A DNA stretch of 64,000 nt from Chlorobiaceae bacterium (lineage in GTDB: Bacteria > Bacteroidota > Ignavibacteria > UBA10030 > SZUA-254). Made by a program: the position numbers and the translations under genes. A model generated the notes under the pieces. It saw only the letters and a list, made by a program, of their open reading frames with translations. It was not told where the DNA came from and did no database searches. Positions 17,952-64,000 of the stretch are shown in pieces. The DNA lies in contig PNNN01000039.1 in NCBI GenBank assembly GCA_013824245.1, positions 75,250 through 139,249 on the forward strand. The letters are read 5' to 3'. Each line of letters begins with the position of its first letter. Position 1 is the first letter of the stretch.

Positions 17952-17953
17952 TC

Positions 17954-20094: not shown

Positions 20095-20690
20095 ACATAC
20101 CATTTTTTAAATATGGATTATTTGGTGATGATGTCAGTTTGGTCATCGCATTTATCATCGGTATTGGGTTTGGATTTTTCCTGGAGCGTGGCGGATTCGG
20201 CAATGGTAGAAAATTAGCCGCCCAATTCTACTTCAACGATTTAACTGTTTTCAAAGTAATGTTCACCGCAATCATTACTGCAATGGTCGGGATCTATTAT
20301 TTATCTGTAATTGGTTGGATGGATTTGTCGCTCGTATATGTAAGTCCAACATACATCGTTCCTCAAACAATCGGTGGATTGGTGCTCGGATTTGGATTCG
20401 TAATCGGTGGGTATTGTCCCGGCACTTCATGTGTATCAGCCGTAACGGGCAAGATCGACGGAATGGTTTATCTGCTCGGAATTGTTGTAGGAATTTTCGT
20501 CTTCGGAGAAATTTATCCGCTCGTGAGTAACTTTTATAACTCAACACCGATGGGGCAGATTACACTATCGCAGTTATTCAACATTCCGTACGGAATATTA
20601 GTGTTCGCCGTTGTGTTGATGGCAATCGGTGGATTTGCCGCTGCTGAATGGGCAGAAAAAAAACTTGGTAATAAAATAGTGGAGCCATAA
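20091..20690 (+). CDS. YeeE/YedE sulfur-compound transporter, half-size subunit 2
   Basis: GIGFGFFLERGGFG; FKVMFTAI; GGYCPGT; ATGA overlap gives start 20091. Confidence 0.88.
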   Translation: MNIPFFKYGLFGDDVSLVIAFIIGIGFGFFLERGGFGNGRKLAAQFYFNDLTVFKVMFTAIITAMVGIYYLSVIGWMDLSLVYVSPTYIVPQTIGGLVLGFGFVIGGYCPGTSCVSAVTGKIDGMVYLLGIVVGIFVFGEIYPLVSNFYNSTPMGQITLSQLFNIPYGILVFAVVLMAIGGFAAAEWAEKKLGNKIVEP

Positions 20691-20692
20691 TT

Positions 20693-31899: not shown

Positions 31900-31943
31900 T
31901 TGAATTAACAAAAAACTTCGGCAATAAAAAATATGAGACTCAC

Positions 31944-33299
31944 ATGTTAAACAAAATATTAATTGCTCTTTTTCTAGGCAGTGTTACACTGTTTGGTCAA
32001 TCTCATAAAGATTTGATTCAAGGACCTTTTGCGACTCCACAAGACGTAACAAAAACGTGCTTAACCTGTCACGAATCTTCCGCACAACAAATAATTAAAA
32101 CCAGTCATTGGACCTGGATGGATGAAAAATATGAGGATAGCCGACACAATGTAAAACAGTTTGGCAAAAAGAACTTTATAAATAATTTCTGCCTTGCCGT
32201 TACGTCCAACTATCCACGATGCACAAGTTGTCATGTTGGATATGGATGGAAGGATGTCACATTCGATTTTACTAAAGAAGAAAATGTTGATTGTTTGGTG
32301 TGCCACGATCAATCCGGAACATACAAAAAAAATCCAACCGGAGCCGGAATGCCGGAAAAAAATGTTGATCTCCTAATCTCTGCACAAAGTGTTGGGAAAC
32401 CGACAAGAAAGAATTGCGGAATGTGCCATTTTGATGGCGGTGGCGGAACCGGAGTGAAACATGGCGATATGGATGATAGTTTATATGATCCCAAACCGGA
32501 GACAGATATTCATATGGGTAAACTTGGATATCATTGCACAGAATGTCATAAAACTAACGAACACAAAATTATGGGTGCGAGTCACGGCTCAATGGCTGCG
32601 AATGCAAACCATATTTACTGCACGGATTGCCACAAAGATGCGATCCATAAAAACGAAACTCTGAATAAACACATAGCATCGATTGCTTGTGAAACTTGTC
32701 ATATTCCAGAATTTGCGCGGGTTGAACCAACAAAGGTTTGGTGGGATTGGTCGAAAGCCGGCGAAGACAGACCGGAATCCAAAGATGAATTTGGCAGAGA
32801 AACCTACAATAAAATGAAGGGTGAATTTAAATGGGCAAAGAGCGTTATACCCACATATAAATGGTATAACGGCAGCGCTTTATATTATTCAGCGGGAGAT
32901 AAGATTGAGCCGACAAAAATTGTTCTGCTCAATACACTCAACGGCGATATTAAAGACCCCCAAGCTAAAATTTCACCGTTCAAAGTTATGCGCGGCAGTC
33001 AAATCTATGATTCTCAAAACAATTATTTGGTTGTGCCTAAACTTTTTGGCGAAGGCGGGTACTGGAAAAATTATGATTGGAATTTAGCTTCGCAACTTGG
33101 TATGAAAGAATTGAGTTTACCTTATTCGGGAAGTTATTCATTTATCGAAACGGAAATGTACTGGCCAATCAACCATATGGTAGCGCCCAAAGAAAAAGCT
33201 TTGAAGTGTAATTCTTGCCATAGCAAAGAAGGGCGATTAAACTGGAAAGCTTTAGGTTATTCCGGTGATCCTATGAAAGTTAAAGGAAGAAAATTTTAA
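31944..33299 (+). CDS. otr: Octaheme tetrathionate reductase family cytochrome c
   Basis: 8 CXXCH (CLTCH, CTSCH, CLVCH, CGMCH, CTECH, CTDCH, CETCH, CNSCH); HWTW; GKKNFINNFC; KHGDMD; WPINHMVAPKE. Alternative GTG start at 31896. Confidence 0.9.
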   Translation: MLNKILIALFLGSVTLFGQSHKDLIQGPFATPQDVTKTCLTCHESSAQQIIKTSHWTWMDEKYEDSRHNVKQFGKKNFINNFCLAVTSNYPRCTSCHVGYGWKDVTFDFTKEENVDCLVCHDQSGTYKKNPTGAGMPEKNVDLLISAQSVGKPTRKNCGMCHFDGGGGTGVKHGDMDDSLYDPKPETDIHMGKLGYHCTECHKTNEHKIMGASHGSMAANANHIYCTDCHKDAIHKNETLNKHIASIACETCHIPEFARVEPTKVWWDWSKAGEDRPESKDEFGRETYNKMKGEFKWAKSVIPTYKWYNGSALYYSAGDKIEPTKIVLLNTLNGDIKDPQAKISPFKVMRGSQIYDSQNNYLVVPKLFGEGGYWKNYDWNLASQLGMKELSLPYSGSYSFIETEMYWPINHMVAPKEKALKCNSCHSKEGRLNWKALGYSGDPMKVKGRKF

Positions 33300-48402: not shown

Positions 48403-49929
48403 GTGCATATCAATAATATCAAAATAATTAAGCTCCTTGATAAGCTATTCCCCTCTTTAACGGCAAAAATCGCTGTTGCGATGCTGTTTGTATTTCTTTT
48501 AGCGGGCGGGGGATTCGTATATTTTGCCCATTATACCGGTTTTAAAATGCTCGAGAGAAGTTCACAATCTCAAGCCCATGGTGTAGCCGAGTTCAGCAAA
48601 GCTATACTTGAGCATATTATGTTGAATGGGGAAAATCGGCAACTACAATCAGCATTGAACAGAATTGTTTCTTCGCGGCATGCAACCGATATTCTTATTC
48701 TTCGGGAGGATGGTGAAATAGCGATGCGTGTCAGTTCGGGGGTTACATCGGAAAAATTACCACTCGAAAAATTTCGAGAACTTCCCGAATACCCGGGCGA
48801 GAAATTCTTATTCATCAACGAGAATGGATCGACATATCAATACATCATAACACCCATAAAGAAGAGGACAGATTGTTATCAATGCCATTCTGAGCCATTG
48901 GCGACCCAAGGTTTTCTTGGTGTAAAGATTTCTATGGATGATATCCGAGGTGTTGCACTACAGCATCGAACAACTAATATCATTATGACGATCATTACAT
49001 TCGTGGGACTTGGTGCGATGCTTTTTATAGCTCTTCTAATTGTAGTTTTACGGCCTATAAAAAAATTACGTTACCAGATCGGTGAAGTCGATCAACAAAT
49101 CGATAGATATGAAAAAGGAGAACGCGTACAGTTCGATAAATTGTTTATTTCAGACAGGGAAGATGAGGTAACAAGCGTAATGCGTGCATTCAACCGATTG
49201 ATACATCGGTTGAACGATGCAAACGAAAAAATTCGCGACCTTCACCAAATACAAATGGAACATGCAGATCGATTAGCGACAACCGGAGAAATGGCGGCGG
49301 GTATTGCGCATGAAATAAAAAATCCGATTACCGGCGTACTCGGAGCCCTTCATGTTTTCGATGGTGAAATGGAAGAAAGTGACGAACGGAAAGAAATTAT
49401 TGCTGAAATGATAGCTCAACTTGAACGGGTTAATTATGCGATTAACGATCTGTTGAGTTATGCGAGACCGGTTAATCCTGAATTTACCGAAACAGATATA
49501 GCTGAAATCGTGAGAAGAACAATTGGACTGTTGTCTCCTCAGAGCAAACAGCTAAACGCTGATATTCGAACGAATCTGACAGAAAATAAAATTTTAATAA
49601 ATGCCGATAAAAAACAAATCCAACAAATATTATGGAACATAACATTAAATGCACTCCAGGCGTTGGATGGTAAGGGAGTTGTCAATGTTCTTGTTGAGGA
49701 AGATGATGTAAGAGTTAAAATTCAAGTTAAAGATACCGGCAGAGGAATTCCAGACGAACATTTAAACTGCATTTTTCAACCATTCTTTACAACCAAGCAT
49801 AAAGGTACAGGTCTTGGTATGACGATCACGAAAAGAATAATTGAACAACATGGTGGAACAATTTCAATAGAAAGCCGTGTGAATGCGGGTACCACAGTAA
49901 TTATAATACTTCCAAAGAAACAAAACTAA
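48403..49929 (+). CDS. Sensor histidine kinase with periplasmic c-type heme (CYQCH), HAMP, HisKA and HATPase
   Basis: Two TM segments flanking a domain with CYQCH; AHEIKNP H-box; NALQA; DTGRGI; PFFTTK; GTGLG. Confidence 0.9.
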   Translation: MHINNIKIIKLLDKLFPSLTAKIAVAMLFVFLLAGGGFVYFAHYTGFKMLERSSQSQAHGVAEFSKAILEHIMLNGENRQLQSALNRIVSSRHATDILILREDGEIAMRVSSGVTSEKLPLEKFRELPEYPGEKFLFINENGSTYQYIITPIKKRTDCYQCHSEPLATQGFLGVKISMDDIRGVALQHRTTNIIMTIITFVGLGAMLFIALLIVVLRPIKKLRYQIGEVDQQIDRYEKGERVQFDKLFISDREDEVTSVMRAFNRLIHRLNDANEKIRDLHQIQMEHADRLATTGEMAAGIAHEIKNPITGVLGALHVFDGEMEESDERKEIIAEMIAQLERVNYAINDLLSYARPVNPEFTETDIAEIVRRTIGLLSPQSKQLNADIRTNLTENKILINADKKQIQQILWNITLNALQALDGKGVVNVLVEEDDVRVKIQVKDTGRGIPDEHLNCIFQPFFTTKHKGTGLGMTITKRIIEQHGGTISIESRVNAGTTVIIILPKKQN

Positions 49930-49939
49930 TAACGATAAA

Positions 49940-51307
49940 ATGTATTGTAAAAAAATATTGATTGTTGACGACGAACGTTTAATTCGATGGTCAGTGAAAC
50001 AAGAATTAATTAAGAGCGGATTCGAAGTTGTCGAAGCAGATTCGGTTAAATCTGCTCGTCAGGCAATTGTTGATGATGATCCCGACATAATGATTTTAGA
50101 TCAGATGTTACCCGATGGCACAGGAATAGATCTATTAACCGAGATACAGAACACCAATAGGATAATGCCGGTGATCATGTTGACGGCAGTTGATAAGTCG
50201 CATACAGCCGTTAAAGCTTTGAAACTTGGGGCTTTTGATTATGTAACAAAACCGGTAAATATTGAAGAGTTAATAATTATTATCGAGAGGTGTTGCGAAG
50301 CTACACGTTTGAAACGTCAGGTTGCTCAATTGATGAAAGATCAAGAAAAAACGGGTGGATTTTCCGGTTTACTCGGATCCTCTGCGCCAATGAAGAATGT
50401 TGGGGAACATATTAATAAAATTTCTCAGAGTAACTGCACAACCGTTCTGATTACCGGTGAGAGCGGAACAGGAAAAGAACTTGCAGCAAAAGCGATTCAT
50501 TTCCTCAGCGACAGGCGCGATAAACTTTTTTTACCTGTAAATTTTTCAGCTCTCACCGAGACCATTGTTGAAAGCGAGCTATTCGGACACGAAAGAGGCG
50601 CCTTCACAGATGCGAGGCAGCAGAAAAAAGGGATATTTGAACTGGCTGACAGCGGAACGATCTTACTTGATGAGATAGGTAATATATCTCCAAAAGTTCA
50701 AGTTAGATTGCTAAGAGTGTTGGAGCAAAAGATATTTCAGAGAGTTGGCGGGACTCAGGATATAAGCGTTGATGTCCGTATAATCGCCGCAACAAATCAG
50801 CCGCTTGAGCAGCTTGTGAAGGAAGGTAAATTTCGCTCCGATTTATATTACCGGTTAAATGTAGCGACTATTCAAATGCCACCTCTGCGTGACCGCGGTG
50901 ATGATATAATAACGCTTGCTGAATTTTTCATTCATGAATTCAACATTGCTTTTCATAAAAACTTTAAAGGCATTACCGAGGAAACAAAACAAATATTTTT
51001 AAGATATGATTGGCCCGGCAATGTACGTGAGTTAAGAAATGTTGTTGAACGTGCTGTGTTGATGGATGACGGCGAATATATATTCTCTCATTCCGTTGAA
51101 TTAGGACACATCCATAAATTGGGACACGAAAAACCAGAACTTGCGTTCGAGCTTGGTTCCTTGGGGCAATCATTAGACGATATAGAAAAACAGGTTTTAA
51201 CAAAAGCGCTGGAAAAAACAAACAAGAACCAATCTCAAGCTGCAAAGATTCTCAAGATCAGCCGAGACACTCTACGATACAGAATGAAGAAGCATGACCT
51301 GCTCTGA
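49940..51307 (+). CDS. NtrC-family sigma54-dependent response regulator
   Basis: Receiver (VDDE, LDQMLPDG); GESGTGKEL; ESELFGHERGAFTDA; WPGNVRELRN; Fis-type HTH. Confidence 0.95.
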   Translation: MYCKKILIVDDERLIRWSVKQELIKSGFEVVEADSVKSARQAIVDDDPDIMILDQMLPDGTGIDLLTEIQNTNRIMPVIMLTAVDKSHTAVKALKLGAFDYVTKPVNIEELIIIIERCCEATRLKRQVAQLMKDQEKTGGFSGLLGSSAPMKNVGEHINKISQSNCTTVLITGESGTGKELAAKAIHFLSDRRDKLFLPVNFSALTETIVESELFGHERGAFTDARQQKKGIFELADSGTILLDEIGNISPKVQVRLLRVLEQKIFQRVGGTQDISVDVRIIAATNQPLEQLVKEGKFRSDLYYRLNVATIQMPPLRDRGDDIITLAEFFIHEFNIAFHKNFKGITEETKQIFLRYDWPGNVRELRNVVERAVLMDDGEYIFSHSVELGHIHKLGHEKPELAFELGSLGQSLDDIEKQVLTKALEKTNKNQSQAAKILKISRDTLRYRMKKHDLL

Positions 51308-52074: not shown

Positions 52075-53298
52075 ATGATATCTAAATATCTCACAATATC
52101 AATTTTATGCGTTCTCGGTGTTGTCTGTTTTTTAGGCGATACACCGCGATCTTCTTTGACGATTTTGGCTCCAGTTTATCCCGATTCGCTTGCTTATGAT
52201 CAGGGTCAACTATTTTTAATCACTTGTTCCAAAGAACAAACAACCGGTTTAATGATATCCACTCAATGGGCTGTTGAGAAGTTGATCGATATAGGCAGTA
52301 AGGCAAACAAAGATAATTTTGCCAAAGAAGTTTTTAAATTATTTCCAGCTAAGTCAACTCTTGAATTAGTCTCTACTTCTTTTCTGTTTTACAATGGATT
52401 CTCAAAAGCGGATTCCATTAGTTTCCCTTACATCGATACTATAACTGTTCGGTTTTTCTGGCAATTACCTCAGTTTGCCGAAATCATTCGTCAGGTACAA
52501 AATATCAATGCATCCCATGTTTTGCTTCAGATGCGAGGTTGGAAAGATACCGTTTATACTTCAACTCATCCCGATCCTATTAATCCCGATCAGGTATTAT
52601 ATCGCGCGTCAGTACAATTGTTGCCCGGTGCAAACAGGATATATTTTGCGAGCAATGGGATGAAAAATGAGGCAGAAGAATTTTTTGTTAACTTCGTGAC
52701 CAAAGCACGTAAGAGCGAATCTTACGATGTACAATTCCATGGTTCTCCCCTTGCTGTATCTTGTGCAAAATGTCATAAGGAATTGCCGAGCGAAACAAAT
52801 GCTGATGGTGAACGCGATAAATGCGGATTGTGTCATAACGAAATTGCAGGCGGTTTAATGAAACATGGTCCCGCGGCAGAACCGAAAGAATGTTCCACAT
52901 GTCATGAACGTTCTACAGAAAAAAATATTGAAATTGTTCCAAAAGGTGTTCCGGGTGTTTGTTTCGATTGCCATACCGAGAAGAAAGATGAAGTTGAGAC
53001 TTCGGCAGTAAAACACAAAGTTGCACACGATTGTGTAATTTGCCACTCACCGCACGCAACCGATCAGCCGAAATTTTTGAAGAATGATGTCTATCGTTTG
53101 TGCACCGGATGTCACCCGAACCATCTTATCAGTCATCCCGTCGATAAACACCCCATGCGATTTTCAAAATTAAATAAAGACTCAAACGAAGAAATTTCAT
53201 GTGTAAGTTGCCACAAGCCGCATGGTTCCGAAAACCGATCTTTATTAAAAGCCAGCGGTGGTTCAATGGCAGTGTGTATGCAATGTCATCAAAAGTGA
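52075..53298 (+). CDS. Octaheme cytochrome c (paired-CXXCH type) with a non-heme N-terminal domain
   Basis: Signal peptide; CAKCH, CGLCH, CSTCH, CFDCH, CVICH, CTGCH, CVSCH, CMQCH. Confidence 0.9.
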   Translation: MISKYLTISILCVLGVVCFLGDTPRSSLTILAPVYPDSLAYDQGQLFLITCSKEQTTGLMISTQWAVEKLIDIGSKANKDNFAKEVFKLFPAKSTLELVSTSFLFYNGFSKADSISFPYIDTITVRFFWQLPQFAEIIRQVQNINASHVLLQMRGWKDTVYTSTHPDPINPDQVLYRASVQLLPGANRIYFASNGMKNEAEEFFVNFVTKARKSESYDVQFHGSPLAVSCAKCHKELPSETNADGERDKCGLCHNEIAGGLMKHGPAAEPKECSTCHERSTEKNIEIVPKGVPGVCFDCHTEKKDEVETSAVKHKVAHDCVICHSPHATDQPKFLKNDVYRLCTGCHPNHLISHPVDKHPMRFSKLNKDSNEEISCVSCHKPHGSENRSLLKASGGSMAVCMQCHQK

Positions 53299-54212
53299 AT
53301 TCATATCGAATATTCTGTTTCTTGTTTGCGATGGCATCAATTGCCACCGCGCAAACAACATTCACCGATTTAGGAATTTCGGGCGGATCAAGTATCGTTA
53401 TGGCTCCTACAATTTCTGTTGCCCCCACTTCGCAGTTACGCGTTCATATGGGTCGAGTTGATTTTCTTCGCGGTGGCATGAAGGGATATAATGTATTCGG
53501 TCTGCAGGGTGGATTTTCAACCAACCTCGAAACATTCATTTCGATGTACAGCGAGCAAACCGGCTCAATTAATTCAAATGTATCATATGGAATTGGCGGC
53601 AAGCTTCTTTTGCCGTTCCGTGTTCCAGCGATTGGGAATCTCGCACTTTGGGGCGAAACGATCTCATCTACATTTTCATCCGAGAATGGAATGTTGCCAC
53701 AGAATATCACGCGGTTTTACATTATTGGGGGTAGATCTATTGGAAACTTTAACCCAATAATAATCGCCGGAGCAATGAATATTGACCATAAGTATTTACC
53801 GATAGCCGCTGTTGGAGGAACATTTCCTCTGAGCAGTGAAATAAAAATAGGCGGCGAAGGCATTTACAATTATTTCGGGATGAGAGAAAAACAAGGTATG
53901 CTGACCGGGATGATGAGAATTTTATCTAACATCAGTGTTCAGGTTAGCGGTGGATACATTCATTCCCAGCCGATGTCATCATGGATTTTTTCTGCCGGAC
54001 TTTCACTGGCAACAGCCGACTTGAATTTGTCTCCAAAGCCACAGGCAGCGCCAAAGGTTATTGTTCCGTCTTTTGAAGAGATGGAAAAAATGTCGATGGA
54101 GGAAAAAGGTATTGGACAAACTGTTCCACCTGTGCCGCCTGAGCAGGAAGAGAAAAAGCCGGAAACCCCGGAAGATAAGAAAGATGAAAAACAAAATGAT
54201 CCGCATAAATAA
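53295..54212 (+). CDS. Putative outer-membrane beta-barrel (YjbH-like) with Pro/charged tail
   Basis: GTG overlapping the upstream stop gives the signal peptide MNSYRIFCFLFAMASIATA; GISGGSSIVMAPT; alternating amphipathic strands; PPVPPEQEEKK tail. Confidence 0.55.
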   Translation: MNSYRIFCFLFAMASIATAQTTFTDLGISGGSSIVMAPTISVAPTSQLRVHMGRVDFLRGGMKGYNVFGLQGGFSTNLETFISMYSEQTGSINSNVSYGIGGKLLLPFRVPAIGNLALWGETISSTFSSENGMLPQNITRFYIIGGRSIGNFNPIIIAGAMNIDHKYLPIAAVGGTFPLSSEIKIGGEGIYNYFGMREKQGMLTGMMRILSNISVQVSGGYIHSQPMSSWIFSAGLSLATADLNLSPKPQAAPKVIVPSFEEMEKMSMEEKGIGQTVPPVPPEQEEKKPETPEDKKDEKQNDPHK

Positions 54213-54230
54213 GATAAAGATAATTTGATT

Positions 54231-55247
54231 ATGAAAGATATATTGAAAAAAATATTGTTAGTTGTGATAATAATTGGCGCTAATTCATTTTATGGGTGTG
54301 GTTCAAAAAATATTCAGAAGGAAGATATTGCATGGCCCAGTCCGCCCGATGAACCTCGCATAAGATATATAAAGACATATGAAAGCGAAGATGATTTTCT
54401 TTCAAAGTTTGGAATTTTTGCACAGAGCTTAACCGGAAAAGGCGGAACTATCTCGCTTAGTCGTCCTTTCGATGTTTGTAGTGACGGTAAAGGACGAATT
54501 TTTGTAACCGATGTTGCGCAAGGAATTATTGTTTTCGATGAAAACCAGAAGAAAGTATTAGCTCTCGGAGAAAATATTCCTGTTCCGCTCGGCAACCCGC
54601 TCGGAATTGCTTATGGAGATAATAAATTATTCGTCGGCATAGCGGAAATAGGGCAGGTTGTTGCTATGACTCCCGAAGGAAAATTCCTCAATCTTATCGG
54701 AAAATCTGGTTCTTTCCCTAATCCGGTTGATGTTGATTATGATAAATTAAACAAACGAGTGGTGGTTGTCGATAATAAAAACCATCAGGTATATATTTAT
54801 TCTGAAGGTGGAGATTCACTGCTGACGATAGGTAAGCGCGGCGATGCTGATGCTGAATTCAATTATCCTCAAAGCGTGGCAGTTGATACTGCCGGGAATA
54901 TTTATGTGGTAGATGCGTTCAACTTCCGCATACAGGAATTCGACTCGCATGGTAAGTTTATACGAAAATACGGACAGCAGGGAAATGTCTTCGGTACATT
55001 TGCACGCCCGAAGGGTATTGCTCTTGATATGTATCAGAATATTTATGTTGTCGATGCGATGCATCAAAATTTTCAAATATTCAATCAAAATTTCGAACTG
55101 CTTCTTTTTGTAGGCAAATTCTCGAATAAAGATAATTGGGGGTTTCAAAATCCAATTGGAATCTCCGTTGATCAAAACAATACAATTTATGTTGCAGACC
55201 AGTTGAACCAGAGGATACAGGTGTTTCAACTGTTAAAACCAGATTAA
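54231..55247 (+). CDS. NHL-repeat six-bladed beta-propeller lipoprotein (copy 1)
   Basis: FYGC lipobox; WPSPPDEPRI; FNYPQSVAVD, FARPKGIALD, FQNPIGISVD, NQRIQVF repeats. Confidence 0.9.
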   Translation: MKDILKKILLVVIIIGANSFYGCGSKNIQKEDIAWPSPPDEPRIRYIKTYESEDDFLSKFGIFAQSLTGKGGTISLSRPFDVCSDGKGRIFVTDVAQGIIVFDENQKKVLALGENIPVPLGNPLGIAYGDNKLFVGIAEIGQVVAMTPEGKFLNLIGKSGSFPNPVDVDYDKLNKRVVVVDNKNHQVYIYSEGGDSLLTIGKRGDADAEFNYPQSVAVDTAGNIYVVDAFNFRIQEFDSHGKFIRKYGQQGNVFGTFARPKGIALDMYQNIYVVDAMHQNFQIFNQNFELLLFVGKFSNKDNWGFQNPIGISVDQNNTIYVADQLNQRIQVFQLLKPD

Positions 55248-55353: not shown

Positions 55354-56013
55354 ATGAAACAACTTTTAGTTGTAGCAGTGATGATACTTGTTGCCGCATC
55401 TTTCGTTATGGGACAAACGTTAGGAATGGCAACCAGCAAGCACAACTTTGCATTATCTTCAACGAACACCATCAAAGGCGCTTCGGAGAAGGTTTGCGGA
55501 TATTGCCATACACCACACGTTCCGGCAACCGGAATTAAAGCACCGCTATGGTCACGTGCGAAATTAGTATCGACCGGTTACGGTGTATATTCAAGTCCAA
55601 CAATGGATGCTACGCTAACCGCACTTGATGCAGGTCAGGATAATGTTAGCTCTATGTGTATGAGCTGCCACGATGGCAGCGCATTATTTGCTTCAGCGGC
55701 TTATGTGAAACGTCCACACGCTGGATCAGTCGTGTGGGATCCATACATAGCGACAACAGTTGGTGATGCAGCAAACCTGCATGCCGGAACAAAGTATGGT
55801 ACAGGTTTATCACACACACATCCGGTGAATTTCGCCTATAATGCAGCATTAGTAACTGCCGACGGTGGATTACAAGGGACGCCGTTGAACAATTTACCGC
55901 TATACAACGATATGATGCAATGCGGAAGCTGCCATAATCCGCATCTCACGAGCAAAATGACTCGTGTTACAAGCGATGGCGGTTTACTCTGTATTTCATG
56001 TCATGTTAAGTAA
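55354..56013 (+). CDS. OmcE-like tetraheme cytochrome c (copy 1)
   Basis: SKHN..CGYCHTPH..PLWSR..YSSPTM..CMSCHDG..HPVNF..CGSCHNPH..LCISCHVK; strong RBS AAGGAG. Confidence 0.8.
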   Translation: MKQLLVVAVMILVAASFVMGQTLGMATSKHNFALSSTNTIKGASEKVCGYCHTPHVPATGIKAPLWSRAKLVSTGYGVYSSPTMDATLTALDAGQDNVSSMCMSCHDGSALFASAAYVKRPHAGSVVWDPYIATTVGDAANLHAGTKYGTGLSHTHPVNFAYNAALVTADGGLQGTPLNNLPLYNDMMQCGSCHNPHLTSKMTRVTSDGGLLCISCHVK

Positions 56014-56031: not shown

Positions 56032-56059
56032 CGACTCATCCCGATAACGGGATGGGTCG
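56032..56059 (+). terminator. Strong hairpin after the cytochrome gene (stabiliser or partial terminator)
   Basis: cgactcatcccg-ataa-cgggatgggtcg; no U-tract. Confidence 0.45.
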
Positions 56060-56084
56060 TACAAATAAATTGGCAAGGGGAAAA

Positions 56085-57758
56085 GTGAAGCGAGTATTCA
56101 TTATAGCGCTTTTATTAGTGCTATCTATTTATAGTGGCGTCAGTCAGCTTTCGTCGATCAACGGTGAGCTGCGTTATCAGCATCAGTATCAGGATGCTTA
56201 TAGCGGTGGCGCTTTTTATAAACTAATCCGGAAAAATCCGCAGTTTATTTTCGGTACAATGGGTTATATTTTATCCCCCATGATTTTTTCCTTCGATGTC
56301 CGCACCAACATCAACTTAAACTATAACAATTCATCTTTCGCCGGCGTCAACAGTTCTTTCAAGCAAACCATTATAGGGTTTTATGACCTGAATGTTAATG
56401 CTCTGCAACGATTGCCGGTTCGTGTCTCGTTTTCTGCCCGTGATCAGCAGATCAAATCATCTTCGCAATTCAGTAAATTCAATGTCGGTTTCGATGATTA
56501 CAGGCAGCAGCAACAGCGTATCGAATTTTCGACGATGAATTTGAAGTTTTTACCAGCTACCTCTTTTGCATATCAACGTATCCGCAATTGGTCCGATATA
56601 TCATTGAACCGCTTTAATCAGCTTATGCAAGAACTTACACTGAATATGTCTCAATCCACACAAGATGCATCGGTGAGTTTATCGGGATCACTCAGCGAGA
56701 ATTATGAGAGTTTTACAAACAACAGGTTAAGGTACCTACGTTTTCAGATGAGCGGTAACAAAGAATTTTCAGCCAATCACCGCGCAGATATATCTTCCGA
56801 ATATTATAAATTCGAAAATACATCGATGATAAATGCCAATGGCATTTACAACGGCACGCTATTCGAGAAATTCCGATTCAACACCAATATTTTAGCTCGA
56901 AATGCGAACTCTCAATCGGCATCATCAACAACACTCGGATTAGGACAGACTATCCAGTTTCTCCAGAATGAAAATTTTAATTATTCGGTTTCTTTTAATA
57001 ATCAATCCACATACGACATCTACATTCAGGAGAATAACAGTTACAAACAACGTACCGATAATTTGGCGGGATCGGGAACGATTCAACATATGAGGTCTAT
57101 CAGCGATATCACATTTTCTAACGGAATATCTTTCGGCTATGCGAAGCAAGATTCCCGTTTAGGGCAGAGGTCGTACAACGGCGGGCTGACAAACAGTTTT
57201 CAAACCACTTCCGGCGGTTATCAAATAAATGCAAATCAAATGTTTAGCATGACAAGAATTAAAGGATATCTCGGGCGAGATGAAATCAACAACTTAGTGA
57301 ACATGATGATTGGTAAAACTTTGCCGTACCAAATCAATTCTCAGACAGGTATCGAGTTTCGGAATGAACGCCGGTCGAACACGAATGAGCTTTTTTATAA
57401 ATATCAAACAATCCAATTGCGACAACATTTAAATACGTCTATCTATATATATAGTCCGTTTACCGTTTCTGTTGAAGGAACAATGAATTGGATATCAAAC
57501 GGCGTTAAAGGGCATATGTACGGAATAACGGCAAACATAAACAGCGGTCGTTTCTTTTTACAAAATTTATCTATGAATTATCGTCTAAGTCGGACGTACG
57601 ATATATATTATAGAAGACCGTATATGGAGCAGACAATTGAGTTTACATATAACTGGCGCGCTCTTGCATTCCAGCTAAGGTTACAGGAATTCAGGTTCAT
57701 CGATACGCGTCATGATGTCTGGTTCAGTGTAACAAGACCGTTTAACATTGGATTATGA
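56085..57758 (+). CDS. Large putative outer-membrane beta-barrel (porin of a porin-cytochrome complex?)
   Basis: Signal peptide from GTG 56085; S/N/Q/T-rich with alternating aromatic/hydrophobic strands throughout; no heme motif. Confidence 0.6.
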   Translation: MKRVFIIALLLVLSIYSGVSQLSSINGELRYQHQYQDAYSGGAFYKLIRKNPQFIFGTMGYILSPMIFSFDVRTNINLNYNNSSFAGVNSSFKQTIIGFYDLNVNALQRLPVRVSFSARDQQIKSSSQFSKFNVGFDDYRQQQQRIEFSTMNLKFLPATSFAYQRIRNWSDISLNRFNQLMQELTLNMSQSTQDASVSLSGSLSENYESFTNNRLRYLRFQMSGNKEFSANHRADISSEYYKFENTSMINANGIYNGTLFEKFRFNTNILARNANSQSASSTTLGLGQTIQFLQNENFNYSVSFNNQSTYDIYIQENNSYKQRTDNLAGSGTIQHMRSISDITFSNGISFGYAKQDSRLGQRSYNGGLTNSFQTTSGGYQINANQMFSMTRIKGYLGRDEINNLVNMMIGKTLPYQINSQTGIEFRNERRSNTNELFYKYQTIQLRQHLNTSIYIYSPFTVSVEGTMNWISNGVKGHMYGITANINSGRFFLQNLSMNYRLSRTYDIYYRRPYMEQTIEFTYNWRALAFQLRLQEFRFIDTRHDVWFSVTRPFNIGL

Positions 57759-57767
57759 TGTTACCTC

Positions 57768-57945
57768 GAAAGACTCCAGATATCAGACATCAGATTAAAA
57801 ACCTCTCTTCGCAATCCCCCTTGCCAGAGAGAAGGGATTGGAGTTGTCCGCTTATGGCGGACTCTCCAATTCCGTATGTTTTTGGGGGATTTGGCGCTGT
57901 GATATTTAACGGAAATATTATAGTCAGTGATCTGGGGAATTGCAA
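57768..57945. repeat. Repeat-derived spacer inside the cytochrome operon
   Basis: cagatat/cagacat periodic units; aatcccccttg..aagggatt; ttggagttgtccgcttatggcggactctccaa; gggaattgcaatattccc. Confidence 0.5.
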
Positions 57946-58000
57946 TATTCCCATAAATGATATAAGTTTTATAGGTACCAAAATTGGCATTAATAAAATC

Positions 58001-59008
58001 ATGAAGTTATTCATAATTACATTTTTATCGTTTTACATGCTGTTATTATTTGGTTGCGGAACGTCGAAGGAAGCAATTCCCGATTACGTTTGGCCCCCAC
58101 CGCCCGAAAAAGCCCGGATTAAATTTGTGAACATTATTAAGGGGAAAGATTATTTCGAATCATCAGGAATAGATAAGGTGTTGAGTGTTCTTGCGGGCGA
58201 GCATACAGGTACAACTTTTGAGCGTCCTTATGCGGTAGCTGTTGATGCAACAGGAAATATTTATGTATCCGACACAAGCTTGAAGAAAGTTTTTGTGTTC
58301 GATGTTACTCAAAAACAAATTCGCACGATCGGCGATAAAGGAAGTGCAAAACTTCAATCTCCCATCGGGATTGCAATTGCATCCTCAAATAAAATATTCA
58401 TAGCCGATTCAAAAGTAAGACGTGTTTTTGCGTACGACTTAGAAGGTAATTTACTTTTCGGAATTGGTGAAGAAAACGAATTTGCATCGCCAACCGGTTT
58501 GGCTTTCGATTCATCCTCAAGCCGACTTTATGTGGTTGATACAAACAATCATCTGGTTAGAGTGTACAATGATGAAGGAAAATTTTTATTCACGTTCGGC
58601 AAACGCGGTGGCGACGACGGTGAGTTTAATTTTCCAACAAACATCACTGTACATAAAGGAAAAGTGTATGTTGTAGATACTATTAACGGACGAGTTCAGA
58701 TTTTCGATCTGGAAGGGAAATTTGTTTCGAAATTCGGGCAACTTGGAAATACGCCAGGATATTTCTCGCGTCCAAAGGGTATCGCGCTCGATTCATTCGG
58801 ACATATCTATATAGTAGATGCTGCGTTCGATAATTTTCAGTTGTTCAATGAAAAAGGGGAGGCGCTGATGTTCATCGGACAAGCCGGCGCAGGTATTGCA
58901 GAATTTCAATTGCCCGCGGGGATTTTCATTGATAAAGATAATTATATTTATGTTGTCGACCAGCTCAACGCGCGCGTACAGGTTTTTCAATTCATCGGTA
59001 AAGAATAA
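58001..59008 (+). CDS. NHL-repeat beta-propeller lipoprotein (copy 2)
   Basis: LLFGC lipobox from ATG 58001; WPPPPEKARI; FNFPTNI, FSRPKGIALD, FQLPAGIFID, NARVQVF. Confidence 0.9.
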   Translation: MKLFIITFLSFYMLLLFGCGTSKEAIPDYVWPPPPEKARIKFVNIIKGKDYFESSGIDKVLSVLAGEHTGTTFERPYAVAVDATGNIYVSDTSLKKVFVFDVTQKQIRTIGDKGSAKLQSPIGIAIASSNKIFIADSKVRRVFAYDLEGNLLFGIGEENEFASPTGLAFDSSSSRLYVVDTNNHLVRVYNDEGKFLFTFGKRGGDDGEFNFPTNITVHKGKVYVVDTINGRVQIFDLEGKFVSKFGQLGNTPGYFSRPKGIALDSFGHIYIVDAAFDNFQLFNEKGEALMFIGQAGAGIAEFQLPAGIFIDKDNYIYVVDQLNARVQVFQFIGKE

Positions 59009-59043: not shown

Positions 59044-59730
59044 ATGAAGTACTTACTAATCGTCATTACACTGATTTTGATTGTTGCGGTGATAGGATCT
59101 GCACAGATCAGAAATAGTAAACACGATTTATCATTCGGTTCAACAACAACCGGTCCGAAAACCACAACCAGCACTTATACCGAGGTTTGCGTTTTCTGTC
59201 ATACACCACACTCTACACAGAGCACAAGTTTACTTTGGAACCGAACTGCTTCTACTGCATCGTACGCAGTTTATTCCAGTCCGACCATGGAACAAACAGT
59301 TCCGCAGCCGGGTGCAGTTTCTAAAAACTGTCTTAGTTGCCACGATGGTACCATAACATTGGCAAGCGTTGTTAATAATCCGGGCAGTAGTGGTGGAATA
59401 GCTCCGGTTTTCACCGCTCCGGGTAAAATTGATACCACAGTATTCACAGGAATTGGAACAAACCTCACAAACGATCATCCTATCGGTTTTGTTTACAACA
59501 CAAGTCGTTCAACTGACGCGGATTTACGAACCGAAACAGTTGCCGGTATAAAAGTAACCGTCAATGCTACTTCTCCGACCAGATCATTAACACTTTACGG
59601 TACAACCGCTGCCAGTGCAACACTCGAGTGCGGAACCTGTCATGATCCTCACGGAGTAACCGGTGTTCCAACATTCTTAAGAGTATCGAATAGCAACAGC
59701 GAACTCTGCTTTACGTGCCATGTTAAGTAG
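59044..59730 (+). CDS. OmcE-like tetraheme cytochrome c (copy 2; closest to OmcE as recalled)
   Basis: IRNSKHDLSFGS..VCVFCHTPH..LLWNR..YSSPTM..CLSCHDG..GTNLTNDHPIGF..TLECGTCHDPH..FLRVSNSNSELCFTCHVK; RBS AAGGAG. Confidence 0.85.
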   Translation: MKYLLIVITLILIVAVIGSAQIRNSKHDLSFGSTTTGPKTTTSTYTEVCVFCHTPHSTQSTSLLWNRTASTASYAVYSSPTMEQTVPQPGAVSKNCLSCHDGTITLASVVNNPGSSGGIAPVFTAPGKIDTTVFTGIGTNLTNDHPIGFVYNTSRSTDADLRTETVAGIKVTVNATSPTRSLTLYGTTAASATLECGTCHDPHGVTGVPTFLRVSNSNSELCFTCHVK

Positions 59731-59785: not shown

Positions 59786-60781
59786 ATGATAAAATTTTGC
59801 CGAATTATATTATTACTTAGCACTATTTTCTTTATGGAACAAGCGGCGGCTCAAAGTTCTTCCACCGAACTTGTTTGGCCCCCCCCGCCGCAAAAAGCGC
59901 GAATACAACATCTTCGTACAATTTCAAATTTGAACGAAGTAGCATCTGAGCAGGGATTTTTTTCTCGCGTGATGAATTTCTTGTTTGGTGGAACAGAATC
60001 CCGGCATGGATTCGTTCAACCGGTTGGTATCGCTGTTTCTCAATCGGGCGTTATCTACATTGCCGACCCGGGTGCAAATTGCGTTCATATTCTGAATTTA
60101 GATGAAAAAGAATATTCTGTCGTTTCAGAAACAAAAGCCGGAAAACTAAAATCACCTGTTGGTTTGGCTTCAGCTTCGAATGGTTATCTATACATCTCTG
60201 ATTCGGAACGGAAAGAAATTTTGGTTTTAGACGAAGACCTTTCATTTCAATTCGTAATCCGGAATAATTTTGTGAGACCAACAGGTATTCAGATTATAAA
60301 TGGAAAGTTATTCATTGTTGATACGGGTCAGAATAAAATTTTTATTTTCGATCTTAACGGAAAGTTTATTTCGGAATTCGGAAGACGCGGAAGTGGAGAC
60401 GGAGAGTTTAATTATCCGGTACAATTATGCGCCCGCAATTCAATTTATATTGTCGATGCACTGAACTTTCGAATTCAAATGTGTGATGTATCCGGTAAGT
60501 TCGCCGGTCAATTTGGAGGAATAGGTAACAGCGCGGGGAGCTTTGCCAATCCCAAATCGATTGCACTCGATTCCGAAGGTCACGTTTACGTAACCGATGC
60601 GTTGATGGATAATTTTCAAATATTCGATAGTCAGGGACAGCTATTACTCGTTGTTGGAAGCAAAGGAAACGGAGATGGTGAATTTATGAGTCCAAGCGGT
60701 ATAGCAATAGACGCAAATGATACAATTTATATTGTTGACTCACTTAATAAGAGATTACAAATATTCAGGTATATGAAGTGA
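59786..60781 (+). CDS. NHL-repeat beta-propeller (copy 3; Sec signal, no lipobox)
   Basis: WPPPPQKARI; FNYPVQL, FANPKSIALD, FMSPSGIAID, NKRLQIF. Confidence 0.9.
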   Translation: MIKFCRIILLLSTIFFMEQAAAQSSSTELVWPPPPQKARIQHLRTISNLNEVASEQGFFSRVMNFLFGGTESRHGFVQPVGIAVSQSGVIYIADPGANCVHILNLDEKEYSVVSETKAGKLKSPVGLASASNGYLYISDSERKEILVLDEDLSFQFVIRNNFVRPTGIQIINGKLFIVDTGQNKIFIFDLNGKFISEFGRRGSGDGEFNYPVQLCARNSIYIVDALNFRIQMCDVSGKFAGQFGGIGNSAGSFANPKSIALDSEGHVYVTDALMDNFQIFDSQGQLLLVVGSKGNGDGEFMSPSGIAIDANDTIYIVDSLNKRLQIFRYMK

Positions 60782-62670
60782 AAATAAAATTGTTAAAAAT
60801 ATTATTAATTGTGTCCGTATCGCTTATAACGTTCGGTCAGGTATTTTCCCAAACGAGCATCGTAAGCTCGAAGCATAATTTAAGCACAACCGGAACAGGT
60901 ACTATTAAGGCAACAAGCGAAACTCAAGTTTGCGTTTTTTGCCATACCCCACACAGTAAGCAAGTTACGTCTCAATTGTGGAATCATCAACCAACCACAG
61001 CTACATATACATTATACAGCAGTGATTATCTTACATCGAAAAGTTATCCTGCTTCAACACAGCCGGGTACAAAATCAAAACTGTGTTTAGCATGTCACGA
61101 TGGTACAATCGCAATCGGTGCCGTTTATAATACCACAGGATCCAGTTCTGCCGGAACCATTACAATGGCAAGCGGTATAACGACATTACCATCGGGTCAA
61201 TCGACAAATGTAGGTACATCTTTAGTGAACGATCATCCGGTGGGATTTGCATACGATGCTACAAAAGATCCGGAATTGGTATCAAGAACATGGCCCTGGA
61301 ATAGTGCAATTAAATTAGATCCCGATGCTTCAAATGGCAAAGTCGAATGCACGTCGTGTCATGAACCGCATCATAATACAAACGGGAAGTTCTTACAAAT
61401 CTCTAACACGAATGCGGCACTTTGCACATTTTGTCATAATAAAACTAATTGGGCGGCTTCGATTCATAAAACTTCTACTCAAAGTTATACACCATCCGGC
61501 TCCACAACCACTACAGTTGGCGAATGGTCTTGCCGCAATTGTCATCGATCTCACAATGGACAAGGAGTCCCTTATCTGTTAAATCTCGTAGAAGAAAATA
61601 CCTGTTACCAATCAAGCTGTCACGGTTCAACAACTCCCGGAATTAATACGAAAGATATTCAAACACAGGCAAATAAAACTTATAAACATCCAACAAATAC
61701 AGTGAGCGGCAAGCACAAGAATCCTGATAACTCGACAAGTTTAAATGTCCCGAATCGTCACGCCGAATGCTATGATTGCCATAACAGCCATCAGGCGAAA
61801 GATGGATTGCATACGTTGAAAAGCAATGCTGTTTCAAATGTATTAACAGGTGTTTGGGGTGTTACACCCGGTACAGCTACAATATGGACTCAACCAACAA
61901 CGTTCACCATAATAAATCCGGTTACAAAGGAGAATCAGATTTGTTTTAAATGCCATTCATATAATGCTTTTGGATTTGCGTTAAACGGCGTTACAACCAT
62001 TGTTGGACCATCCGGGGTGAATATCACCGATCAAGCGATGGAGTTTAACACGGCAAATAAATCAGCACATCCGGTTGTAGTATCAACGAACAACCAAACA
62101 GGATCAACGGCACCAAAGGCGCTCACTACAACGCAAATGAGTACGACTTGGAATAGTGTTGGAACACAGACAATGTATTGCGGCGATTGCCACGGTAACG
62201 ATCAAGCTACTTCTGCAACTGTTCCTCAGGGTCCGCATGGGTCGAACGCGAAATTCATATTAACAGGTACGGCAAAATATTGGCCCCTTAACGCTTCCGG
62301 AAATCTCTGGTCGCTTAATGACTTAAGGAACAATCTTAATAATTGGTCTACGAATCTTTTTTGTGTAAATTGTCATCCGATTTATAGCGGTGGAAGTTTT
62401 AAAAACAACACCCATTCCAGAAATCAACATCAGGGTGTCGCCGTCAAGTGCGTTGCCTGTCATGTAACAGTACCGCATGGAGCGAAGCGATCGCGCCTGA
62501 TTGGTTATCGAACTGATGTTTATCCGTATAATTACAATGGCGCCGGACAGTTTGAAAAATTAGTGATCAGTGGGTTTCGGAAAGCATCGAGTCCGAATAA
62601 CTACATCAAAAGTGATTGCACTTTCACTAGCGGTTGTCATGGTACACAAAGCGGTACATATGAACCATAA
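60778..62670 (+). CDS. Multiheme cytochrome c: N-terminal OmcE-like tetraheme module plus ~8 further hemes
   Basis: 10 CXXCH (CVFCH, CLACH, CTSCH, CTFCH, CRNCH, CYDCH, CFKCH, CGDCH, CVNCH, CVACH) plus CYQSSCH (CX4CH) and CTFTSGCH (CX5CH); T/S/N-rich. Confidence 0.88.
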   Translation: MKIKLLKILLIVSVSLITFGQVFSQTSIVSSKHNLSTTGTGTIKATSETQVCVFCHTPHSKQVTSQLWNHQPTTATYTLYSSDYLTSKSYPASTQPGTKSKLCLACHDGTIAIGAVYNTTGSSSAGTITMASGITTLPSGQSTNVGTSLVNDHPVGFAYDATKDPELVSRTWPWNSAIKLDPDASNGKVECTSCHEPHHNTNGKFLQISNTNAALCTFCHNKTNWAASIHKTSTQSYTPSGSTTTTVGEWSCRNCHRSHNGQGVPYLLNLVEENTCYQSSCHGSTTPGINTKDIQTQANKTYKHPTNTVSGKHKNPDNSTSLNVPNRHAECYDCHNSHQAKDGLHTLKSNAVSNVLTGVWGVTPGTATIWTQPTTFTIINPVTKENQICFKCHSYNAFGFALNGVTTIVGPSGVNITDQAMEFNTANKSAHPVVVSTNNQTGSTAPKALTTTQMSTTWNSVGTQTMYCGDCHGNDQATSATVPQGPHGSNAKFILTGTAKYWPLNASGNLWSLNDLRNNLNNWSTNLFCVNCHPIYSGGSFKNNTHSRNQHQGVAVKCVACHVTVPHGAKRSRLIGYRTDVYPYNYNGAGQFEKLVISGFRKASSPNNYIKSDCTFTSGCHGTQSGTYEP

Positions 62671-62764: not shown

Positions 62765-64000
62765 ATGAAGCGAAAAATATTAATTCTTTTTTCCTTAACA
62801 ATATTATTCCTACTCTCCTTAGTTACGATGGGATACGGTCAGGAAAATGTGAAGCAGTCATGTATAACAGCTAAGTGTCATGTGAATTTTGGGAAAGCAA
62901 AATTTGTCCATGGACCGGTTGCGGTAGGTGAATGTATCTCGTGTCATCAGCTTCTCCCGAAGGAAGATCATAAATTCCAGCCGATAAAAAATGTAGAAGA
63001 ACAATGCAATAAGTGCCACGAACCGATGGCGAAGAAAGGGACTGTGCATGCGCCGGTTGCGAAGGGCGAATGTGCTAAATGCCACGATTCTCATCAGTCG
63101 GACAGGCAATTTCAGTTAAAGAAATCTTCTACGAGCGACTTGTGCTTTTCATGCCATCCAAAAAATCTGATAACTAAAAAGTTTACACATGGTCCGGCAG
63201 CAGATGGCGAATGTTTATCGTGCCACCTGCCGCACATGAGCGAGAAACCGCAATTATTAACAAAAGCATCTAACGATCTGTGCTTTCAATGCCATACCGA
63301 TTTTCAGGAATCTTTCGCAGCGGCAAAAAATATTCATAAACCGGCAGGTGAAAATTGCGCGCAATGCCATAATCCACACAGCGCCGATGCAAGATTTTTA
63401 CTTGCAAGCAATACACCCGATCAATGTTATACATGCCATGCTGCTATTCAGACATCGGCAACGAAATCTACAGTGAAGCATGTTGCGCTCGATGAAGAGA
63501 AAAAATGTTTAGCTTGTCATTCCCCACATACCGCAAATCATATCAAACAATTAACAGAAGAACCGATGGCACTTTGTTTAAAATGCCACGACAAATCGCT
63601 GGTTGAAAAGGGGAATAAGCTTTCGGATATGAAAACACTGTTCGATAAAAATATTAATTGGCACGGACCGATACGCGAACGCGATTGCTCCGGTTGTCAT
63701 GAAGTTCATGGCTCACAAAATTTCCGGCTATTAACCCAAACATATCCGCCGGAATTTTATACACCATATGCTTCTGAAAAATATGAACTATGTTTTAACT
63801 GCCATCAAAATACGCTTGCGCAGGATCCGACAACCATGACTTTAACTGGTTTTCGAGATGGAAGTCGGAATCTTCATTATCTTCATGTCAATAAAAAAGT
63901 TAAGGGAAGAACTTGTCGTGCATGCCATGAAACCCATGCGAGTAATAACGACAGGCATGTCCGCGAGTTGGTTCCATTCGGACAATGGATGTTGCCGGTA
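62765..64000 (+). CDS. High-heme paired-CXXCH cytochrome c, truncated by the window edge; absent from the ORF track
   Basis: Manual translation from MKRKILILFSLTILFLL: CITAKCH (CX4CH) plus 13 CXXCH (CISCH, CNKCH, CAKCH, CFSCH, CLSCH, CFQCH, CAQCH, CYTCH, CLACH, CLKCH, CSGCH, CFNCH, CRACH); GFRDGSRNLHYLHV..KGRTCRACH. Confidence 0.9.
   Translation, partial: MKRKILILFSLTILFLLSLVTMGYGQENVKQSCITAKCHVNFGKAKFVHGPVAVGECISCHQLLPKEDHKFQPIKNVEEQCNKCHEPMAKKGTVHAPVAKGECAKCHDSHQSDRQFQLKKSSTSDLCFSCHPKNLITKKFTHGPAADGECLSCHLPHMSEKPQLLTKASNDLCFQCHTDFQESFAAAKNIHKPAGENCAQCHNPHSADARFLLASNTPDQCYTCHAAIQTSATKSTVKHVALDEEKKCLACHSPHTANHIKQLTEEPMALCLKCHDKSLVEKGNKLSDMKTLFDKNINWHGPIRERDCSGCHEVHGSQNFRLLTQTYPPEFYTPYASEKYELCFNCHQNTLAQDPTTMTLTGFRDGSRNLHYLHVNKKVKGRTCRACHETHASNNDRHVRELVPFGQWMLPV

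Follow-up and report, generated by a model that had tools for sequence, protein, structure and literature searches.

A twelve-heme-motif cytochrome with an OmcE-like head, encoded in a nanowire gene cluster of an Ignavibacteria-like bacterium, as a candidate filament end subunit

The locus described here lies in a window of 64,000 nucleotides (contig PNNN01000039.1 of assembly GCA_013824245.1, positions 75,250 to 139,249), which comes from a groundwater metagenome organism. In this window, the gene at 60778..62670 (forward strand, as for all features of the cluster described below) encodes F630, a 630-aa secreted cytochrome in which 12 heme motifs were recognized from the open reading frame (ORF), the motif count and more than 100 full-length relatives. 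OmcE nanowire systems have an ancient, unannotated core component, of which F630 is the Ignavibacteria-like member. The gene starts with GTG, in a 4-nt overlap with the TGA stop of the upstream NHL331 gene, and the start column of the alignment is occupied by Met in the relatives. Residues 1 to ~25 (60778..60852) read as a signal peptide without lipobox, modelled by AlphaFold2 (AF2) as a helix at residues 2-22, and this predicted signal marks F630 as an exported protein. Ten CXXCH motifs start at C52, C103, C191, C216, C252, C331, C389, C468, C529 and C558, of which the first four belong to an OmcE-like module and the other six lie further downstream. The latter are complemented by a CX4CH motif, CYQSSCH (residues 276-282, 61603..61623), whose Cys and His are invariant, and by a CX5CH motif, CTFTSGCH (residues 614-621, 62617..62640), located 10 residues from the C-terminus. 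A preliminary description of this DNA, which had listed an OmcE-like tetraheme N-module followed by six more CXXCH, CYQSSCH and CTFTSGCH, was thereby confirmed by the motif count and was right about F630 in every detail.

All 24 Cys of F630 sit inside the 12 motifs, so that no Cys is left over. Further, across 115 full-length relatives (down to ~45% identity) every Cys and every motif His is invariant, except H621, which is kept in 109 of them; by this comparison the motif pattern is far beyond chance, and F630 most likely carries 12 c-type hemes. The two extended motifs were analyzed separately. At site 276 the spacing is 4 in 81 and 2 in 31 of the 115 relatives, and the invariant Cys and His together with the plain CXXCH found in those 31 sequences constitute strong comparative evidence for an ordinary heme site. 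At site 614 the Cys pair is invariant and His follows in 109/115, with a spacing of 3-9 in close relatives; among 71 distant orthologues, CX3CH is found in 40 and CXXCH occasionally, and His follows in 54. Because a minority of orthologues has no adjacent His at this position, with some Betaproteobacteria reading CH-x8-C, a twelfth heme is likely rather than certain here, the alternative being a disulfide. On balance, comparison of the orthologues suggests that both extended motifs are probably ordinary heme sites.

In addition to the 12 motif His, F630 has 13 strictly invariant non-motif His and one that is nearly invariant (H546), so that bis-His ligation of 12 hemes is possible with about two to spare; the total reaches at least 2n+1 for n hemes. 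CX4CH sites are present in ordinary cytochromes c3, and known lyase-requiring heme sites are the CX15CH of MccA and the CXXCK of NrfA. The earlier suggestion that the extended motifs may call for dedicated heme lyases was not supported, since both unusual spacings switch to CXXCH or CX3CH in orthologues and no cytochrome-maturation gene (ccs, ccm, nrf) was found within the 64-kb window.

The OmcE-like tetraheme module spans residues ~26-222 (60853..61443). In a sequence search of the PDB, residues 20-222 of F630 matched residues 18-232 of 7tfs_A, that is, the whole OmcE subunit (E 3.3e-29), and the head also gave a full-length match to 9yuq_N, a solved 218-residue filament cytochrome that is presumably the OmcE of D. 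soudanensis (single sequence, E 1.3e-23). With the family profile these matches reached E 6.8e-47 and 2.7e-35, respectively, and Foldseek returned 7TFS when queried with the F630 AF2 model (E 7e-4), although the N-module was modelled, without hemes, at a pLDDT of only 35-70. The four CXXCH motifs are accompanied by four distal heme-ligand His (H33, H59, H153 and H198) that are invariant in the family, giving 8 His for 4 hemes, and the N-terminal (S/T)KH(N/D)LS histidine is also kept. Sequence comparison thus shows the first third of F630 to be a tetraheme module that genuinely belongs to the OmcE family and has all of its heme ligands. OmcE and the small OmcE-like subunits end 1-2 residues past the heme-4 CXXCH. 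In F630, the heme-4 motif reads CHNK and the chain continues, whereas the small subunits of the same cluster, E219 and E228, stop at CHVK at this place. F630 therefore departs from a single-module OmcE (~200-270 aa, ending just past the heme-4 motif) by a 408-residue, eight-motif extension after CH220.

This extension (residues 223-630, 61444..62667) was compared by HMMER with 1.8 billion representative proteins, which yielded 1,218 relatives (873 with E<=1e-10). The part that recurs is the last ~330 residues (~300-630), C-terminal in nearly all of the listed proteins, whose lengths range from ~180 to 3,811 aa; short matches correspond to fragments or to stand-alone forms, and the long end of the range is made up of giant multiheme cytochromes. 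As judged from this C-terminal recurrence, from stand-alone forms through to giant proteins, residues ~300-630 represent a widespread, undescribed C-terminal heme module of multiheme cytochromes, referred to here as the C-module. Stand-alone relatives of about 400 aa exist, for example in Nitrospirota, where the module is encoded by the final gene of large multiheme clusters devoid of OmcE and NHL genes. At the other extreme, it ends giant multiheme cytochromes of 1,300-3,811 aa (proteins P0128-P0265), P0128 having more tandem repeats after it. AF2 modelled residues ~333-630 at pLDDT 80-95. Neither phmmer nor a profile hmmsearch of the PDB found a solved relative of residues 223-630, two Foldseek runs (full-length model and C-terminal part alone) found no PDB fold for this region, and no Pfam, NCBIfam or PDB counterpart of its ~330 residues was detected. 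Besides the heme ligands, residues R327, D333, E385, D418, E422, N427, M466, R573, K602 and Y609 are invariant in the F630 family.

Within residues 25-400 (60853-61977), the ligand motifs of residues 223-400 follow one another as they do in the OmcE module (H, CxxCHxxH, CxnCHG, HP, ECxxCHxxH, CxxCH), a resemblance that is not statistically separable from generic multiheme similarity. This colinearity of residues 25-222 and 223-400 (hhalign E 7e-5, 63% probability) had raised the idea that F630 is a covalent tandem of three OmcE-like tetraheme units. A hidden Markov model of 49 small OmcE subunits gave median scores of 13.5 bits for the second and 8 bits for the third segment of the F630 family, compared with 17.7 bits for 121 unrelated multiheme cytochromes. 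Since the second and third segments score no better than unrelated cytochromes, the tandem was rejected as unsupported, which is not to say disproved. Foldseek of the C-terminal part alone did not find OmcE, the segment in question having been modelled at pLDDT <50.

The cluster that contains F630 reads, in order, sensor kinase, sigma-54 response regulator, MHC407, p337, NHL340, E219, BB568, NHL417, E228, NHL331, F630 and a cytochrome with at least 14 heme motifs. The sensor histidine kinase and the sigma-54-dependent response regulator (48403..51307, identified by Pfam) are directly upstream of the first cluster gene, which encodes the octaheme cytochrome MHC407 (52075..53298). Next come p337 (53199..54212, probable start 53283), a secreted protein without Pfam match that is conserved in Ignavibacteria-like loci, and NHL340 (54225..55247), an NHL beta-propeller lipoprotein with the lipobox FYGC. 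The two small OmcE-like tetraheme subunits are encoded at 55354..56013 (E219) and 59044..59730 (E228), both ending in CHVK; E228 has exactly 8 His, i.e., the 2 His per heme that polymerising subunits need, and E219 has 11. BB568 (56052..57758) is a 568-aa Cys-free secreted protein at the position of the large beta-barrel of other clusters. NHL417 (57755..59008; Pfam NHL, E 1e-29) is a beta-propeller with the lipobox LLFGC; its true start is probably M83 at 58001, right after which the lipoprotein signal MKLFIITFLSFYMLLLFGC can be read. NHL331 (59786..60781; Pfam NHL, E 6e-28), the cognate partner of F630, is a six-bladed NHL beta-propeller with an ordinary signal peptide. The downstream multiheme cytochrome (62765..64000) is cut at the window end and, as had been described, starts at 62765 with CITAKCH (62861-62881, a CX4CH) as its first motif. 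It is related (281-440 bits) to a cytochrome of 457-503 aa that flanks Desulfobacterota omcE clusters, and may be the counterpart of the D. ferrophilus 14-heme outer-membrane cytochrome.

The neighbourhood of F630 accordingly holds three NHL propellers, two of them with a lipobox, and BB568 as a candidate barrel. Homologues of BB568 were detectable in close loci only, and other phyla have Cys-poor ORFs of ~559-704 aa at its position. BB568 showed no pairwise similarity to the barrel-position ORF of Geobacter and no Pfam or PDB match, so that its designation as a barrel relies on position, size and composition only; sequence homology between the barrels of the window and of Geobacter was rejected on this ground. 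The pair E228 and NHL331 is an extra insertion seen only in the F630 locus and in one other (L003), the arrangement of the other Ignavibacteria-like loci being NHL-omcE-barrel-NHL-fusion, where fusion denotes the F630-type gene. Promoter- and terminator-like sites in the cluster occurred at the level of shuffled sequences, and no sigma-54 -24/-12 consensus was present in the cluster at <=1 mismatch. With regard to expression, no RNA runs were found, the F630 locus being represented only in a groundwater DNA metagenome.

The distribution of the family was determined by a scan of one genome per species, which gave 575 relatives, of which 79 loci were kept. More than 100 full-length relatives of F630 share 45-86% identity and keep all 12 motifs, whereas an exact-match look-up of the F630 protein in public assemblies gave no record. 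The closest loci belong to Bacteroidota/Ignavibacteria-like metagenome-assembled genomes (61-76%), and the others to Desulfobacterota, including Geobacteraceae, Desulfuromusa and Desulforhopalus, to Gammaproteobacteria, including Sulfurimicrobium, Thiobacillus and Sulfuricella, and to Elusimicrobia, Fidelibacterota, Campylobacterota, Nitrospirota, Aquificota, Verrucomicrobiota, Planctomycetota and Calditrichota. F630 aligned colinearly over both modules with a protein of the cultured Geobacter sp. AOG2 (37% identity over 566 columns, E 2e-93), and the orthologues in two further loci (L041 and L038) scored 164-165 bits for the head and 89-94 bits for the C-terminal part. Located orthologues, taken as stop-to-stop ORFs, have 23-31 Cys (mostly 24-26) and 10-11 CXXCH plus 0-2 extended motifs. 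F630 thus combines colinear orthology with Geobacterales, an NHL gene directly upstream and twelve conserved heme-type Cys pairs.

A conserved gene context was observed across these loci. The end of an NHL gene lies -34 to +360 bp from the start of the fusion gene in 67 of 68 evaluable loci, with a median gap of 9 bp. Complete loci, defined by at least 8 kb on both sides, numbered 39, and a small omcE-like gene was present in 32 of them (82%). In Geobacteraceae, Desulfuromusa and Desulforhopalus, the order is omcE, NHL, 5-heme cytochrome, 691-704-aa Cys-poor ORF, NHL and fusion, the fusion protein having 557-585 aa and 24 Cys. Cultured Geobacter sp. AOG2 (locus L080) shows the identical order with a 673-aa ORF at the barrel position; the F630-type gene is the last core gene of its omcE cluster, and a sigma-54-dependent regulator lies upstream, as it also does in several other loci. 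Because the cluster matches the minimal omcE cluster of Petersen et al. (2025; bioRxiv 10.1101/2025.10.22.684050), F630 is, by sequence and position, the orthologue of one of its two cytochromes, namely the large multiheme cytochrome that closes the core formed by barrel, NHL propeller and F630. Loci in which the C-module alone occurs without NHL indicate that the propeller accompanies the OmcE module and not the C-module. The lipoprotein status of the NHL partner was considered as a clue to a base or tip location and discarded, because it is mixed across lineages and hence uninformative.

Approximately 5 kb downstream of the AOG2 fusion gene, a SurA-like peptidyl-prolyl isomerase is encoded (L080, 16477-17478). 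It recalls the peptidyl-prolyl isomerase chaperone OscH, which Shen et al. are said to have implicated in 2025 in OmcS nanowire assembly.

The relationship between fusion heads and small subunits was addressed with a neighbour-joining tree of 119 OmcE-like modules, in which the 73 fusion heads formed one clade with no small subunit inside. Identity was 48% among fusion heads and 40% among small subunits, and the F630 family is the most conserved OmcE-like element of the omcE system. A head shared 39% identity with the small subunit of its own locus and 38% with foreign ones. The single head clade and the lack of extra closeness to same-genome small subunits led us to reject a recent local fusion as the origin of what the preliminary description had called an OmcE-domain fusion; instead, the comparison identifies an ancient, single-origin family that belongs to the omcE cluster core all the way from Geobacter to Ignavibacteria. 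Two tandem F630-type copies occur in L040 and L006.

Some loci of sulfur oxidisers (Sulfurimicrobium, Thiobacillus and Sulfuricella) deviate from this pattern. In L022, L025, L030 and L042, the last Cys pair has the form CH-x8/9-C, in which it is the first Cys that is followed by His, and in L022, L025 and L042 there is no small omcE within 10 kb. A cytochrome of 1,028-1,186 aa, with 24 CXXCH in L022, is encoded upstream of the NHL-fusion pair. These loci may be an electron-uptake variant.

The link between F630 and the filament system is well founded, given its genuine OmcE module and its conserved place in an OmcE-type nanowire cluster. As to the role, the preliminary description had proposed a minor filament subunit at the tip, base or a branch, which would join the polymer through its OmcE module and present a putative domain for contact with a mineral or substrate. 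Our best explanation, to which we assign a probability of about 0.45, is that F630 would be a one-per-filament end subunit, docked by its OmcE head and with its eight-heme tail blocking growth. The head would dock at one end of a filament built from the small OmcE-like subunits, E228 and/or E219, by the normal subunit-subunit mode, that is, heme stacking and one histidine-iron bond across the interface. The extension begins at the C-terminal heme-4 end, where polymerising subunits stop, and would add 408 residues and eight hemes there; as it would occupy the heme-4 face, no further subunit could be added. A spare invariant His of the extension would complete the interface heme, in a manner that fits the 2n+1 rule. 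Acting as initiator or terminator, F630 would lengthen the heme chain by eight and pass electrons between the wire and a non-filament partner, which may be an outer-membrane barrel/propeller complex at the base or a mineral or partner cell at the tip, and the adjacent NHL propeller would be its dedicated assembly partner.

Between base and tip the evidence does not decide. A base role is favoured by the barrel-NHL-fusion triad and by the need of a wire for an electron supply. A tip or initiator role is favoured by the operon layout, which resembles that of chaperone-usher pili in having the major subunit at the start, the barrel in between and the two-domain protein at the end, and by the C-module ending giant extracellular cytochromes. 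A branch adaptor, as also put forward in the preliminary description, found no support.

Several observations weigh against an end subunit. Seven of the 39 complete loci have an NHL gene and an F630-type gene with no small omcE within 8-10 kb, and heads are practically as distant from the small subunit of their own locus as from foreign ones. Published OmcE filament structures report OmcE subunits only. Further, the head, modelled without hemes, has a low pLDDT, so that any geometry of the junction is putative. F630 nevertheless qualifies as the strongest encoded candidate for an OmcE filament end piece. From the original interpretation, then, the link to the filament system was retained and a minor, terminal subunit remains the best available reading, while local fusion, special lyases and the branch adaptor were abandoned.

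The triad that favours a base role would also suit a porin-cytochrome conduit, in which F630 would be one component of an Mtr/Pcc-like trans-outer-membrane complex outside the filament, the others being the barrel and the NHL propeller. Its OmcE-like head would then reflect shared ancestry only, and electrons would reach OmcE filaments or substrates by transient contact. This explanation, which overlaps with the base-adaptor form of the end subunit, accounts for the lineages that have NHL and F630-type genes and no small omcE. It also agrees with a 2026 preprint in which 8-13-heme OmcE-like cytochromes are modelled as Mtr-like conduits and with D. ferrophilus IS5, whose 12- and 14-heme cytochromes are encoded in clusters with NHL propellers and occur in the outer-membrane fraction; moreover, the F630 profile weakly matches MtrA (6r2q_A) over the heme 3-5 region. 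However, the head keeps every OmcE ligand His, including the KH(N/D)LS common to polymerising subunits, F630 has no lipobox, the DmsE/MtrA model TIGR03508 gave 42.6 bits over one local stretch against a cut-off of 192.2, and clusters that have no barrel-NHL pair of this kind contain the C-module as well. We consider a conduit component rather unlikely, though it is the most serious competitor of the end subunit.

The donor histidine and the OmcE-type head that F630 has kept would also be expected of a self-polymerising 12-heme subunit forming a thicker homopolymeric nanowire, for which the 6-heme OmcS and the 8-heme OmcZ are precedents, and the genomes without small omcE as well as the tandem copies in L040 and L006 could be understood in this way. 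Self-polymerisation is nonetheless improbable, as F630 is almost always single-copy beside small subunits, its extension starts exactly at the place of the next subunit, and nothing in the C-terminal part looks like a complementary OmcE interface, the second segment being no closer to OmcE than unrelated cytochromes are. Least probable of all is a catalytic terminal reductase in which the eight-heme extension would be an enzyme of the kind of the octaheme reductases for nitrite, tetrathionate or sulfite and would receive its electrons from an OmcE-like input domain. Heme density (one per ~51 residues) and size are like those of octaheme enzymes, many non-ligand residues are invariant, and there are weak, two-motif local matches to the NrfA-type nitrite reductase 8bcx (E 1.6 with the single sequence, 0.0018 with the profile). 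Yet the invariant His suffice for bis-His ligation of all hemes, F630 contains no CXXCK motif, Foldseek returned no penta- or octaheme reductase of the NrfA, OTR, HAO or MccA kind and no other PDB fold for the C-terminal part, and NCBIfam nitrite-reductase models scored far below their cut-offs.

The end-subunit explanation can be extended to a more general proposal, which we offer tentatively: the F630 family may supply the missing nucleator, anchor or terminator of OmcE filaments, as a "subunit plus cap", and the C-module may be a general electron plug. The head would take the last polymer place, and the tail would complete the unsatisfied interface heme and connect the filament electrically with the barrel/propeller machinery of the outer membrane or with a mineral. 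On giant extracellular cytochromes of many phyla, the C-module would likewise serve as an electron entry or exit plug.

Elsewhere in the window, other loci were noted. At 9104-14260 there is a complete type I restriction-modification system with HsdR, HsdM and HsdS, after which comes a 277-aa ORF without family match. Positions 15314-21346 encode a MerR regulator, a Psr/Phs-like molybdopterin oxidoreductase with 4Fe-4S and NrfD subunits, two sulfur-transport proteins and a rhodanese, and look like a polysulfide or thiosulfate respiration locus. A 467-aa multiheme cytochrome with a PF11783 "Cytochrome c bacterial" domain (E 2e-70) is encoded at 31896-33299, its neighbours being NUBPL/ParA-type and 4Fe-4S P-loop proteins and a radical SAM gene.

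How cytochrome nanowires start, stop, are anchored and are supplied with electrons is an openly stated gap. Nanowire secretion and anchoring are still described as speculative in a 2025 review (PMC12307469), and Petersen et al. (bioRxiv 10.1101/2025.10.22.684050) ask how OmcE polymerisation ends and what forms the tip. In their view, the ideal stopper would be OmcE-like with one extra histidine, and F630, whose invariant His number at least 2n+1, conforms to this rule. According to the same authors, OmcE operons do not encode any OmcE-like protein having more exposed hemes, and their five phyla with OmcE homologues do not include Bacteroidota and Ignavibacteriota. Comparative sequence evidence presented here shows that an OmcE-like candidate end protein is encoded in omcE operons, also in cultured Geobacterales, which recasts the question of nanowire ends as concrete experiments in tractable strains. 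Further, we found no paper that describes the F630 family as an OmcE head with an eight-heme tail, and the C-module of ~330 residues defined here, which has no solved structure, is an undescribed unit present in more than 1,000 protein clusters.

One of the closest known systems is OmcE of G. sulfurreducens (GSU0618, 7TFS), which shares with F630 the order of the four CXXCH, the KH(D/N)LS, CHTPH, NDHP and ECxxCHxPH motifs and a gene neighbourhood of like kind. One of the interface hemes of OmcE is ligated by a histidine of the neighbouring subunit, as reviews including PMC12307469 recount. OmcE stops 2 residues past the heme-4 motif and has 8 His, whereas F630 continues for 408 residues, which bring eight further motifs and 10 further conserved His; the clade formed by heads of its type is separate, older and better conserved, and polymerisation is putative. 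The second cytochrome of the minimal omcE cluster of Petersen et al. (2025), listed there merely as a multiheme cytochrome, occupies the same position as F630, after the barrel and the second propeller. Compared with this Geobacter version, the Ignavibacteria-like one is ~60-80 residues longer, has CX4CH/CX5CH where the orthologue has CXXCH/CX3CH, and its cluster is without the 5-heme cytochrome that lies upstream of the barrel in Geobacter-type omcE clusters.

Clusters of comparable content have been described in D. ferrophilus IS5 (DFE_448-451 and DFE_461-465), where 12- and 14-heme outer-membrane cytochromes are encoded together with NHL propellers, are induced by electron-donor starvation and are conserved in sediment bacteria (Deng et al. 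2018). The combination of a 12-heme cytochrome and NHL is like that of F630, a likeness by description only. In Verrucomicrobiota and Acidobacteriota, clusters with 8-13-heme "OmcE-like" cytochromes have been modelled as parts of Mtr-like conduits (the 2026 preprint mentioned above). MtrCAB and the OmaB-OmbB-OmcB system of Geobacter resemble the F630 cluster in having a barrel gene beside multiheme cytochrome genes; F630 differs from these porin-cytochrome conduits by the lack of a lipobox, by scores far below the cut-offs of the DmsE/MtrA and GSU2203 models and by the absence of a Foldseek match to MtrA or MtrC. OmcB has 12 hemes, the number of heme motifs in F630, and to our knowledge Mtr and Pcc systems do not include NHL propellers. 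The tip adhesins and terminators of chaperone-usher pili (FimH, PapG, PapH) are similar by analogy, without homology to F630: they comprise a pilin-like polymerisation module and a functional domain and are encoded last in an operon with an outer-membrane barrel. The analogy itself has been raised by Petersen et al. (2025). Chaperone-usher pili assemble by donor-strand exchange, whereas F630 is proposed to be joined by heme stacking and a His-Fe bond, with its functional domain at the C-terminal end.

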